NCBI GenBank assembly: GCA_951406725.2
Contig: OX597818.1
Span: forward strand, 147,126,001 to 147,190,000
Direction of reading: 5' to 3'
Source: Octopus vulgaris
Taxonomy: Eukaryota
Length of the DNA stretch: 64,000 nucleotides
The position numbers were made by a program, and so were the translations under genes. Of this stretch, positions 40,141 through 55,475 are shown piece by piece. How positions within the stretch are numbered: the stretch's first letter is position 1; each line of letters begins with the position of its first letter. The notes beneath the pieces are model-generated. The model saw nothing but the letters and a program-made list of their open reading frames with translations, was not told the origin of the DNA and did not search any database.

Positions 40141-42724
40141 AACAAAAAACTTTCGTTCTCTTTGGTGGCTTTAGCCCCTGTCTGTCTATTTACGTTCTTT
40201 AACAGGTGACTTATTTATCCCCCACTTTCATTTTTATTTACTTTTTTAAACACCCTAAACCGAAAGATTATCACATTCTATGATAAAATAAAGAGAAAAT
40301 GAAACGAGATGGGGAAAACACGAGACGAACGAAATAGCAGGAAGGAAAAGGAAAGAATGTGTAACAAGTGAATTGATTTTATGCTGTTTAATCCTACAGC
40401 GATGAGACATCGAATCAAAAGGCGGCTTTTCCCTTCTAATTAGACGGTCTTTTCTTTTTCTTTTTTTTGCAGACATTACATTGTCTCCTAGTTTTCTTTT
40501 TTAGGAAGGTTGGGTGTAATTTCAGTATTTAGCTGGTGTTTCGAGCATGTTTAGCGACAACGTTTGACTCCCAAAAGTTCACTCGAATGTGTTTTAGTAT
40601 CTTAAAACAATTTCGAGATTAATGAAGCTGAAGAAAGAGATGATAAAGGAAGTAGAAAAGAATGATTTAGAGGGAAAGAGAAAGACACAGTGAGAGGGAG
40701 AGAGGCTAAGAATAACGACTCAAGAAGCAGACAGAAATGGAAAGAGAGGAAGTGGAGGAAAGAAAAAGGAAACGAAATGCGGGAAGTCTGACTGGATGTT
40801 GATGAAAGGAAAATGACGAACATGGGAGAGAATGTTTGTAATAAAGAGAGAGAGAAAGGAAAAAGAGATATGGGAGAAGTAATATATAATAGCTGGATAG
40901 AGAGAGAGAGCAAAGGAGGAAGAATGAGAGGCATGACACATCAACAGGCTGGATTAACTCGTTTGATCTTTGTTATGAGTGTAGTCTGGGCTGTAAATTT
41001 TGATCCGTTACTGACAATCAGCTCTCGACTACATTCATTCCTATCGGTTATGAGCTTTCTTTTAACAAGTTATGACTTAGATATATTAACAAAATGAATG
41101 ACGAATAAAAAGAAATGGAGAGAAAAGGAACAGTGAAACACAAATAGAGTGAAAAAGAGAGAAAGAGCAATACAAAGAGAGATCTGCGTGAGGAGGGGAA
41201 TATGTAAATAAAGAGAAACTGAAAGGTATTTAGATGCTTGGCGGCATTTCTTCCGGTTTTACGATCTCAGTTCAAATGCCGCCGAAGTTGACTTTGCTTT
41301 TTATCCTTTCGAGGTTGATAAAATCAGTACCAGTTGAGTACTGAAGTCGAAGTAATCGACTAACCCCAAAATTTCAGGCCTTTATACCTATGGTAGAAAA
41401 GATTTATTTGGTAGTCCTTTCAATTCTCTTCTGTATGTCTGTGTGTATGTGTGCATGTGTAGAGTTAGATATCTTTTAGTCAAGAAGAAAAACAGTTCCC
41501 ACAACCTTTTCCAGGGCCTCCTTCTTAGACTGGTGGGAGGAAGAAGGAGACGGCCCAGGTGGTTGCAAGGAGTCGACTCCGCTAAAGATACCTAGGGTGC
41601 CAAGTGTTGGTTTTAAACACGGACGATCTACCTATCTGTCTATCCATCAACATAAAATATTTAATAAAGTGAGCCAAATGAGTTTAATTTAAATTCCGCC
41701 ATTTGAGAAGGGAAATAAGAAAAAATGGATAACCTTAATTTTAGTCCAGAAAGGCATGGCTGTGTGATAAGAAGTTTGCCTTGCAACCACATAATTCTGA
41801 GGGTCAGGCCCACTGCGTGACACCAGCGATGGATTAACCCTTAAACAAAATAAGTACGTGCTTAGGGCTTCAAGAGAGGAGGGGGCACTACAGAAATGCC
41901 AAAAAGAGATCACTTTAAACTTGCTAAAATAATATTTAGGATGCCTTGTCTCTCTACTAAGTATAGAAGCAGATGTGTTACATAAGATTAATTTTGAAGA
42001 TCTAATCAAAGATTTTGCAATTAAAAGAAGTAGGAAAAAATTTTCAAATATGCAAAAAGTGGAAATATTCAAGCATAAACGTTATTTTCCCTCTTACTGT
42101 TAGTTGTGTTTCATTTTGAAAAATGAAAATTCATTTTATGCTTTATCATTGTTTATATTTTGAATTACTTATATATGGGGGCACCAAAATCGTTTAAGTC
42201 CTTAGGGTTTCTATGGGCCTCAATCCGACTCTGCGTGGCACTAGGGGCCCGGAACAGGTGGTGCGTTGCCACCCACTAAAATTTTTGAAGGGTGTGAAAT
42301 CAAAATATGCACCCCTACATATTTTGCCTGGTTTAGAAGATAGTGTCTAAAAATTGATGTGCAAAAAGTTGCTTGAAGTTAGGTTTTTTTCCTCAAAACA
42401 AGAACAAAAATAAGTAAATAAAAAGTCCAGAATGTTAGCTGATGAAGCTGGTCATAAAATTCCGAAGAGAATTCTAGAAAGATATACTACTGAACTAAAG
42501 CATCATCAATATCAAAATTATGTGTGTGTATACATATATATATACATACATATATATACACACATATAGATAGATAGATAGATAGATAGATAGATAGATA
42601 GATAGATAGATAGATAGATAGATAGATAGATAGATAGATAGATAGATAGATAGATAGATAGATAGATAGATAGATAGATTGATAGATAGATAGATAGATA
42701 GATAGATTGATAGATAGATAGATA

Positions 42725-44237
42725 TGTTTCTTTATTAGCCACACAGGGCTGCACACAGATAGAACAAATTACAAGGTAGAGCTTTTCTTTTGAAGGTTTA
42801 AAAAAAAAAAAAAAAAAAAAGGGGAAGGGGGAGTTTCGATCAAAAGGGATCGTAAAAGGAGAGAAAGAGGACAAAAAAGGGGGTTAAAAAAAAGGGGGAG
42901 AGGAAAAAAAAAAAAAAAAAAAATTGATCAATAGGGATCGTTATCACAGAAATGTCAATATGAATTGTAAAGGGGAGGACAGGTGAGGTTTACCCGTGGA
43001 AAGAAAAGCCTACGGAAAAGACCACGGTAACCTCGGTCAATGAAGTCACATTTTATATTCCTTTTTTTTTTTTTTTTTTTTTTGCAAATAAGCAACTCTC
43101 TGTTTTCGATTTCTGGGTTCATAGGACTATGCTCAAGGTGGCTTCGTCATTCATACGTGCCATTCTTGCTACATTCACCCATCTTTTTTTAAAACATTCG
43201 CTAGACAAAACTTGCCTCTCTACTCTCACTTTCCTTTTCAAGTGGTACTTGAAGAAGTTGATGAGAGATTGACCAGAGAGGAAAGTGTTTGTCTCCAATC
43301 CTTTCAGACGCGTCCACCAGATACATTCTTTCGCCATAGCCACAAGGATGATGAAAATAGCTCTTCCTTCCCGTTTGAAGGAAGGAGGCGTGACAATATT
43401 GACGATAGACTCAGCTGATAAACCGACTCGTCCCACACGTGACAGCAGTTGTTCGACATAAGCCCACAGGTCGGAAATTGTTGGACACTGAACGAGTGCG
43501 TGCAGAACGGTTTCGTCGCTCTGACCGCATCTCGAGCAGGTCGGCCCCGTGTTTCTCGAGCCGTGTCTGTAGAGCTTATCCCGAACGGGTAGCGCCTCTC
43601 GGTAGCACTGCCAGGCCAGGGATCTCTGGAAGTTGTCCATGGGCCCTGGCCCGAAAGTCGTCCTGAACAGGCGGGTCAGGTACTCCTCGTCGACGTCCAG
43701 GTTCGCCCCGAGCTCGTCGTCGTACCTCCCCTCCACTAAACCCCTATATAATGCTTTGGTTGTGTTGAAGTCACTTAAGGTCGACCCAGGACGGCAGAGT
43801 TGCTTGAGAGCAACGCGACACTCGCGGTGCCATTCGCCCTTCCTCGGCCTCTTTTTGATCCACGACTGCAGTTCGGTCATGGAGACGAGCTGCGGGAAAG
43901 CGTGCCTCACAAACGGCGACCACACCTGTTCACCGTCGTCTACATAGAGCCAGAGATGCCGCAGTCTCAGCGCGTGTCTGCGCATCATCAACCACGGCAT
44001 GCCCAGCCCTCCTTTTAACGGGTGTTGACAGCAAATGGATCGCCTGACCATCGGGACGCATCCTTTCCACAAGAAGCGAAAGAGGATGCGTTGTAGTTTG
44101 GTGATGGTAGGGTCGGGACAAGGTACGACGGTCAGGCGGTAGTAGATGACGGACGCGATGTACGTGTTCGCCACCTCCGCTCGACCTTTTAGGGACAGTT
44201 TCCTCTCGGCCCATTGCCGGGCGAGAGTGACCACCCT
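42725..44237 (-). mobile_element. Tx1-clade element copy 1, 5'-truncated (~1.5 kb)
   Basis: ORF2 C-terminus plus 3'UTR ending AATAAAGAAACA directly into (TATC)n. 5' end joined to (TATC)n. Confidence 0.95.
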
Positions 44238-44306
44238 AGATAGATAGATAGATAGATAGATAGATAGATAGATAGATAGATAGATAGATAGATTGATAGA
44301 TAGATA

Positions 44307-55032: not shown

Positions 55033-55250
55033 TTTGGAAATAAAATGGCTAAATGAAACCACGAAGGCTATGAGAATTTTTCTTTTAAATTTTGCCCACA
55101 AGGGGCAAAATTTTGTGTCGATATTTATCAAAGGTTTACAGTGGATGTTGTTGCACAACTTTTAAGCACAAAATGTTTGTCAATATACACTTTTGAAACG
55201 TACAAAAATACCAACTTACGTGGAGCCCATTTGACTTGCGTCCGTCTGTC

Positions 55251-55475
55251 AGATAGATAGATAGATAGATAGATAGATAGATAGATAGATAGATAGATAG
55301 ATAGATAGATTGATAGATAGGTAGGTAGGTAGGTAGGTAGGTAGATAGATAGATAGATAGATAGATAGATAGATAGATAGATAGATAGATATATAGATAG
55401 ATAGATAGATAGATAGATAGATAGATAGACAGACAGATAGATAGATGGATGGATGGATGGATGGACGGACGGACA
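55251..55475. repeat. compound (GATA)n/(GGTA)n/(GATG)n microsatellite, 5' flank of the array
   Basis: Direct reading. Confidence 0.95.

Follow-up and report, generated by a model that had tools for sequence, protein, structure and literature searches.

How does a tetranucleotide repeat in the genome of Octopus vulgaris come to hold seven copies of one retrotransposon, all on the same strand? The question is raised by a 64,000-nucleotide stretch of contig OX597818.1 (assembly GCA_951406725.2, positions 147,126,001 to 147,190,000), here called the window, and was followed through the genome (2.8 Gb in 227 contigs). Between window positions 42566 and 55474, eight (GATA)n tracts alternate with seven minus-strand copies of a long interspersed nuclear element (LINE), on whose own strand the repeat reads (TATC)n. 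The element family is real, young, abundant and strongly target-biased. Its sequence and junctions indicate, with good confidence, a retrotransposon without long terminal repeats (non-LTR retrotransposon), with an apurinic/apyrimidinic endonuclease (APE) and a reverse transcriptase (RT), likely of the Tx1 clade, which copies itself into (GATA)n on one strand and in one phase, likely by nicking the GATA strand itself and priming there. The array is made up as follows, the tracts being listed without strand.

42566–42724: (GATA)n tract 1, the downstream flank of copy 1, with two GATT interruptions
42725–44236, minus strand: copy 1, 1,512 bp, 5'-truncated, youngest subfamily; end of open reading frame 2 (ORF2) and 3' untranslated region (3'UTR)
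44237–44306: (GATA)n tract 2
44307–45633, minus strand: copy 2, 1,327 bp, 5'-truncated, youngest subfamily; a 35-nt interrupted stretch is common to both flanks
45634–45872: (GATA)n tract 3, with seven GATT interruptions
45873–46965, minus strand: copy 3, 1,093 bp, 5'-truncated, youngest subfamily; a 30-nt interrupted stretch is common to both flanks
46966–46999: (GATA)n tract 4, 34 bp
47000–47569, minus strand: copy 4, 570 bp, 5'-truncated, second subfamily
47570–47630: (GATA)n tract 5
47631–47994, minus strand: copy 5, 364 bp, third subfamily, consisting of 3'UTR alone; 94% to the nearest relative among those compared
47995–48355: (GATA)n tract 6, with variants GAT, GGAT and GGTA
48356–48979, minus strand: copy 6, 624 bp, 5'-truncated, second subfamily
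48980–49080: (GATA)n tract 7
49081–55250, minus strand: copy 7, 6,170 bp, full-length, fourth subfamily; 284 exact 3' ends genome-wide
55251–55474: (GATA)n tract 8, upstream of copy 7, where the repeat decays into GACA/GGAT/GGAC

All seven copies stop at the identical point (..AATAAAGAAACA / GACACA / GAAACT / AAGAAAGT); the last base lies 6 nt past AATAAA, without poly(A), and TATC of the same phase comes next. The 5' junction lies in TATC-type repeat in every copy, and six of the seven are 5'-truncated, each at a different point. The array that a sequence-only reading had described, with seven same-strand copies, a fixed 3' end, no poly(A) and TATC at both sides, is therefore confirmed in 7/7 copies. 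The lengths given there for the six truncated copies agree with ours within 2 bp, and the 5' end of copy 7 is common to 30 of 30 loci examined. At least three 3'UTR subfamilies had been claimed; that there are several stands, and pairwise identities raise the count to four, namely copies 1 to 3 (98.7–99.2% alike), copies 4 and 6, copy 5, and copy 7, which is 72.8–82.4% identical to the other window copies. The four are 73–93% alike and interleaved. Two short CGATC..GATCG inverted repeats occur in the 3'UTR of all copies (e.g. window 42830–42950), conserved between homopolymer runs whose lengths vary greatly. A (TATC)n tract without insertion lies on the other strand at 38559–38724, 4 kb from the array.

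Genome-wide, the last 27 bases of the element occur exactly 5,795 times, and 4,448 of these occurrences are directly followed by TATCTATC, in one phase. For the copy-7 subfamily, TATCTAT is next at 254 of 284 exact 3' ends. Repeat of the opposite strand within 0–3 nt of the 3' end was found only once in the genome, with a slightly shorter pattern; in this lone case (locus L125, contig C1:10,528,384) the 3' end is followed by GATAGATA, perhaps after a later inversion. An unselected set was formed from 65 copies taken in genome order, regardless of flank and with both ends in view. TATC was present at the 5' junction of 47 of them, at the 3' junction of 50, at both in 42, and on the opposite strand in one; the truncated copies of this set have it on their 5' side in 45/63 cases. 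All full-length copies with both ends (18/18) have 5' TATC, as do all 30 full-length 5' ends examined. TATC covers 8 nt or more in just 0.23% of random 28-mers from the rest of the window, so its presence at the 5' junctions of the array is not due to chance. According to the available text of PMC4494074, a family is target-specific when one sequence type makes up >20% of flanks; here the share is 77–89% of 3' flanks and 72% of unselected 5' flanks. The inference of the sequence-only reading, that this is a strand-specific (GATA)n-targeting family, is supported: most 5' flanks are of the GATA type, and orientation relative to GATA is fixed.

The two junctions differ in phase. Among 138 parsed 3' ends, the flank starts with TATC in 123 and with TAT in 130, near-miss sites included. 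The 5' phase is mixed (TATC 15, ATCT 13, TCTA 12, CTAT 9, other 5). For 34 of the 138 3' ends the 5' junction lay outside the stretch analysed, and these rows were dropped. A fixed 3' and a mixed 5' phase are the asymmetry expected of target-primed reverse transcription.

Target-site duplications that include non-repeat bases were found in 11/47 testable copies, compared with 5.6% (273/4,841) of mismatched pairs. Readable duplications are mostly 8–17 nt long (L048 13 nt, L043 14, L138 14, L110 17, L117 9 and L135 9), and young copies picked for informative flanks have one of 7–17 nt in 8/8 cases. L110 has a clear 17-nt duplication, then 18 more repeat-like bases up to the 5' end. At four near-miss sites (L117, L135, L138 and, weakly, L060) the duplication, as judged by eye, directly abuts the element end with zero added units, which argues against a copied multi-unit tail.

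These junctions bear on the possibility that the element itself produces (TATC)n as a 3' tail, in the manner of many CR1/L2/RTE families, with tandem neighbours supplying the 5' repeats. The fixed 3' phase would fit a tail, as would the copies with a long 3' tract and a short or no 5' tract. However, an upstream copy is not in view for most copies that have 5' TATC (more than one 3' end was counted in only 4 of 40 unselected 6.8-kb loci), copies at the downstream edges of tracts (L149, L048, L110 and L251) have a long 5' repeat and only 7–12 nt of 3' repeat, and the near-miss sites are tailless. We regard this explanation as very improbable, and a CR1/L2/RTE-type element with a 3' microsatellite tail was rejected, given repeat on both sides and no added units at near-miss sites. 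The repeat is the target and not a tail, because imperfect sites were duplicated and near-miss sites gained no extra 3' repeats.

A different possibility is that base pairing is the main determinant: a read-through RNA ending in (UAUC)n would anneal to a GATA strand nicked by an endonuclease of only loose specificity. AATAAA stands a mere 6 nt ahead of the last base, and the RNA may hence be cleaved downstream, within the repeat; 3 nt of pairing would give the same TAT start in 130/138 flanks. A short interspersed nuclear element (SINE) with a homologous tail lands elsewhere (at AGGTAT in 17/30), an observation in keeping with pairing if its mobility comes from the same ORF2, and grafting of the Tx1L loop alone failed to transfer specificity, as reported in the available part of PMC1950540. 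Yet any unit of a multi-unit tail should be able to pair, with addition of repeats, and none were added at the four near-miss sites; the SINE may owe its movement to a different family, and an older sister family has the same tail. We therefore consider pairing quite unlikely as the main determinant, and favour recognition of the GATA strand by the element's own endonuclease.

Full-length insertions may bring in target besides duplicating it. A tree was built from 30 full-length 5' regions, and its bootstrap is not fully settled; in it, small variants at the end of the upstream repeat track the starred groups L069/L070 and L063/L068/L090, and in the unresolved main group an extra G stands at the repeat end in 14 of 16 rows. 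We infer that the full-length RNA has its start within the upstream tract and takes a short TATC head along from the donor, which would bring new target with each full-length insertion. The earlier proposal that insertion preserves or regenerates target repeats is borne out by the target-site duplications and, on this evidence, by the inherited 5' TATC head.

How, then, was the array built? Every copy in the window matches dispersed copies at least as closely as it matches its neighbours. Copy 2 is identical to L132 over 916 nt, and the differences within the young trio in 720 nt (3 between copies 1 and 2, 5 between 2 and 3, 8 between 1 and 3) are additive, so these copies share no private change. 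The 39 best matches to copy 1 (1,540–1,544 of 1,553 bits), among 40 scored of 668 candidates, lie on 10 contigs elsewhere, and copies 2 and 3 are not among them. The copy-1 subfamily is 99.7% alike across contigs, and the 3' flank of its closest relatives opens with TATCTATC in 33/39; judged by this identity, it is very young. In its L248, L250 and L254 5' parts, the 5'UTR and ORF1 align with other subfamilies in few pieces at only ~72–74%, which suggests replacement of the 5' end. The locus L107 has a mosaic-like appearance.

The tracts themselves may hold a record of splitting. A GATT interruption occurs in all four tracts beside copies 1 to 4 and is duplicated on both sides of copies 2 and 3, while only 1/38 parsed young relatives has GATT within 45 nt (one further young relative, L230, was left unparsed, with interruptions slightly further out). 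The pattern thus fits repeated splitting of one tract. That the RNA tail carried the interruption was rejected on the same count among dispersed relatives. Insertions placed right on an older copy's 5' junction were found at L010, L041, L248, L249 and L250, and single insertions at such junctions bear their own duplications. At L010:1170–1806, two tandem copies have the same truncation point, and the duplication of the newer copy takes in the first bases of the older one; these bases seem to have set its 5' junction via microhomology.

The window array is not unique, and other arrays hold 7–10 ends:

contig C1:60,396,768–60,429,984, one strand: array with 7 copy-7-type and 3 other ends
contig C1:71,621,279–71,646,033, same strand: array with 7 copy-7-subfamily ends
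contig C2:59,865,868–59,882,579, same strand: array with 4 copy-7-subfamily ends

A 5.4-kb piece of the array at C1 60.40–60.43 Mb contains four copies, each truncated differently and set apart by TATC spacers, with a degenerate repeat as one of the 5' flanks. L256 belongs with these other same-strand arrays rich in the copy-7 subfamily, which has more ends in them than its share of the genome would predict.

Same-subfamily runs such as copies 1 to 3 could also stem from a single event, whether a local burst or template jumping from one RNA to another, with targeting as described. The three are adjacent and 98.7–99.2% alike; in another array four of four copies in 5.4 kb are of the copy-7 type, and a single 31-kb stretch has 7 of the 284 ends of that type. 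Against a single event, the spacers vary from 34 to 361 bp and hold locally interrupted repeat, the flanks of copies 2 and 3 match and are interrupted, four subfamilies are interleaved, and the single insertions at older junctions have duplications of their own. We judge a one-event origin unlikely. Tandem duplication or an assembly artefact is hardly credible: near-identical copies and microsatellites are hard to assemble, but six truncation points, four subfamilies, the lack of private changes common to copies 1 to 3 and the same build at other loci all speak against it.

Several observations weigh against (GATA)n targeting with serial insertion. Among the unselected copies, 5' TATC is absent in 18/65 and 3' TATC in 15/65, so the specificity is a strong preference and not absolute; among the 18 are old copies at near-miss sites, together with copies that have a long 3' tract and a 5' end perhaps disrupted later. 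An informative duplication is absent in 36/47 testable copies, and some duplication matches stop 6–18 nt short of the junction. The shared flanks of copies 2 and 3 (35 and 30 nt) are longer than elsewhere, maybe through slippage or chance. On C1, ends of the rare copy-7 subfamily number 7 within 31 kb and 6 within 11 kb, more than serial sampling of the commonest subfamily would give. Finally, among the first 100 listed ends, 16 have a same-strand neighbour within 7 kb (~2.4 expected) and 9 an opposite-strand one; because opposite-strand copies cluster too, part of the clustering is regional. On balance serial insertion is favoured from the sequence as the origin of the array, and the seven insertions would all be independent on that view; given the same-subfamily clustering, template jumping or local bursts may have made part of it.

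Taken in order, the events may be pictured as follows. The ORF2 protein would bind its own RNA, perhaps via the conserved 3' stem-loop, and nick 5'-GATA|GATA-3'. Copying then begins, as the junctions show, at the exact last base of the element, leaving no poly(A) and no extra repeat. A second-strand cut about 8–17 nt off, in any phase, would account for the short duplication and variable 5' truncation seen at the junctions, truncation often falling at a few bases of microhomology. Insertion leaves TATC at both sides, as the junctions likewise show, and a full-length RNA begun in the upstream tract would bring a short TATC head. Each remaining tract could then serve as a fresh same-strand target, so that several subfamilies pile up head to tail.

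The coding parts of copy 7, all on the minus strand, were assigned as follows.

49081–49120: 3'-terminal motif with a small predicted stem-loop (AGCC-loop-GGCT), AATAAA and the junction, present in all seven copies
49441–52164: ORF2 part 2, with RT (PF00078, E 8.7e-32) and zf-RVT (PF13966, E 7.4e-8), ending early at a frameshift near 49450
52168–52818: ORF2 part 1, with the APE endonuclease (PF03372, E 8.9e-15), followed by an in-frame stop at 52165–52167
52864–55032: ORF1, 723 aa, open, with one putative zf-CCHC knuckle (PF00098, E 0.006)
55033–55250: 5'UTR, beginning GACAGACGGACG

ORF2 of copy 7 is broken by this stop and by the frameshift, which lies in an A run and could be a homopolymer error; the APE frame stops ahead of the TDH motif. 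Full frames of about 1,150 codons were found in 2/20 full-length loci and 4/8 young loci, the one in L092 encoding 1,145 aa. Since natural intact ORF2 frames exist, the repaired endonuclease proposed earlier for nicking assays is not needed. With an N-terminal APE, RT and a C-terminal Cys-rich motif, the ORF2 layout fits an APE-type non-LTR retrotransposon of the L1 group, and the variable 5' truncation, fixed 3' end and short target-site duplication are those of that group. Alignment to the L1 endonuclease showed all APE catalytic motifs (CVN, SET, VY, GDWN, YLD and TDH), the residues compared being N14, E43, Y115, D145, N147, D205 and H230 in L1 numbering. The APE hairpin loop, WSNRSGSSRS, equals that of L1 in length and is two residues shorter than the Tx1L graft in 2v0r. 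The predicted APE structure of a natural copy (predicted local distance difference test score, pLDDT, 93.6) best matches the L1 endonuclease, with a template modelling (TM) score of 0.82, and among solved structures L1 ORF2p is the closest to this ORF2. The zf-CCHC match in ORF1 scores 17 bits, under the Pfam cut-off of 20.8, and a Pfam domain search gave no match to RRM or Transposase_22 in this ORF1. In the available text of PMC5203782, type I ORF1 proteins of the Tx1 clade are described as having RRM and/or zf-CCHC and no Transposase_22. A tail homologous to the 49081–49120 motif is also found in a SINE and a sister LINE family; the predicted 3' folds are weak (-5 to -9 kcal/mol, w/o shuffle control), and the putative stem-loop is a lead only.

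Membership of the Tx1 clade is likely from these comparisons. An intact ORF2 scores 231–349 bits with Tx1-like ORF2s from fish (eight proteins), 538 with one from a turtle and 188 with human L1. An unrooted RT tree was built with 45 rows; it held no L1 outgroup or verified reference family and left out P0003 and P0004 as too short. In it the octopod ORF2s form a starred group (100/99) on a long branch, beside unnamed ENA proteins and apart from the fish/turtle group. Membership of Kibi/Koshi was rejected: the target is (TATC)n rather than (TC)n/(TTC)n, and the RT tree has separate starred groups, with P0249 (Tetraodon Q76IM5) as what we take to be a Kibi/Koshi entry. The nearest named protein, from Argonauta hians, is 66% identical, and a homolog search with the APE alone returned one protein. 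Atlas labels for the relatives named only RT/APE families, protein clusters yielded no informative name for the nearest unnamed relatives, and Rfam gave no match in window 26000–64000.

Pieces of an older, decayed sister LINE family lie in the window at 60102–60570 and 63612–64000, plus strand. Sampled from 63612–64000, this family has about 40–60% protein identity. Its homologous 3' motif is followed by ATTATT at 4/4 loci with a recognisable end (L198, L203, L205 and L206, of 16; 3' flank only), so (ATT)n is a possible second microsatellite target. A dimeric SINE of about 230 bp, with a 184-bp period, lies at 27577–27990 on the minus strand, and its last ~50 bases are homologous to the LINE 3' end. 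Its tail has 81,605 exact matches genome-wide. The AGGTAT-like sites at which the SINE lands in 17/30 are often in its own body, giving 184-bp tandems; a (TA)n target, an idea from the window copy alone, was rejected on this count. In a wider reading, to which we give somewhat less than an even chance, this would be a still-active octopod LINE with the first GATA-specific APE endonuclease, making its own landing sites (by duplication and the transcribed 5' TATC head) and multi-kb arrays; it would be one arm of an undescribed cephalopod radiation, with sisters that have the same 3' stem-loop at other targets such as (ATT)n, and would drive a >80,000-copy SINE.

The window has further features. 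A tandem array with a 125-bp unit (35 copies, 90% matches) occupies 15764–20159. An LTR-element-like insert lies at ~60590–63612, between the two older-LINE pieces, with an integrase zinc-binding match at 61415–61738 (PF17921) and, by eye, a bounding direct repeat of ~450 bp near 60590–61040 and 63130–63610. A hAT transposase C-terminal remnant at 57814–58356, minus strand, matches PF05699 with E 0.002, below cut-off.

The family accounts for a recurring genome structure, microsatellites that grow into 10–30 kb LINE arrays, and such arrays in GATA repeats call for caution in GATA marker design and assembly. The source of APE sequence specificity is still open, as the failed Tx1L graft illustrates (available part of PMC1950540). 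Thousands of junctions, naturally intact ORF2 frames and a target of four bases with set strand and phase are available in this family. Its genome also holds a sister family, seemingly at (ATT)n, which makes endonuclease and RNA determinants directly comparable. Animal genomes commonly contain GATA repeats as non-coding sites, and a GATA-specific inserter could for that reason interest gene-delivery work.

The available part of PMC13282606 lists 80 L1-Tx1 families in Octopus vulgaris (56 Mb), 13 of them recently active with 421 insertions; the GATA-targeting family may well be among the 80. The accessible portions of two repeat surveys, PMC13282606 and PMC8967140, contain no target analysis of octopus L1-Tx1. 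A GATA-specific LINE was not found in the literature searched, a search that lay outside most subscription papers and Repbase/Dfam, and the running text available of PMC4494074, as distinct from figure labels and supplements, gives no GATA, TATC or ATCT target.

Among known systems, target-specific non-LTR elements fall in the Tx1 and R1 groups and in early-branched clades (PMC4640811, in part). The Tx1 families described at (TC)n, (TTC)n, (TTCC)n and (TTTC)n (PMC4494074, as far as available) are the closest parallel: Kibi at (TC)n and Koshi at (TTC)n of teleosts and the crocodilian Tx1 at (TTCC)n/(TTTC)n are likewise APE-type LINEs in microsatellites, and the fish ORF2s that score 231–349 bits include some named 'Transposon TX1'. 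The octopod target, (TATC)n/(GATA)n, differs in not being polypyrimidine, and RT identity is only 37–41%. Togen at (TG)n and some HERO families are also microsatellite-specific, but with a restriction-like endonuclease instead of APE (PMC4640811, in part). Human LINE-1 ORF2p shares the domain order, APE fold, catalytic residues, hairpin loop length, short duplications and 5' truncation; it differs in its low score of 188 bits, and the octopod element lacks poly(A), has a putative CCHC knuckle and no Transposase_22 match in ORF1, and uses another target. R1 tandem arrays and transposable element dimers made by double insertion, where an insertion preserves its own target and creates a new one (10.1101/158386, available text), are likewise head to tail, with varied 5' truncations and preserved target between copies. 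Here, in contrast, the target is a dispersed microsatellite, the spacers are expandable, several subfamilies are mixed, and there is no sign of expansion by unequal exchange. Microsatellite-targeting Tx1 families and arrays by repeated insertion being already known, the surprise is limited and the GATA target is the part that appears new: the element works like Kibi and Koshi with an apparently new repeat target, and its array building follows a known principle.

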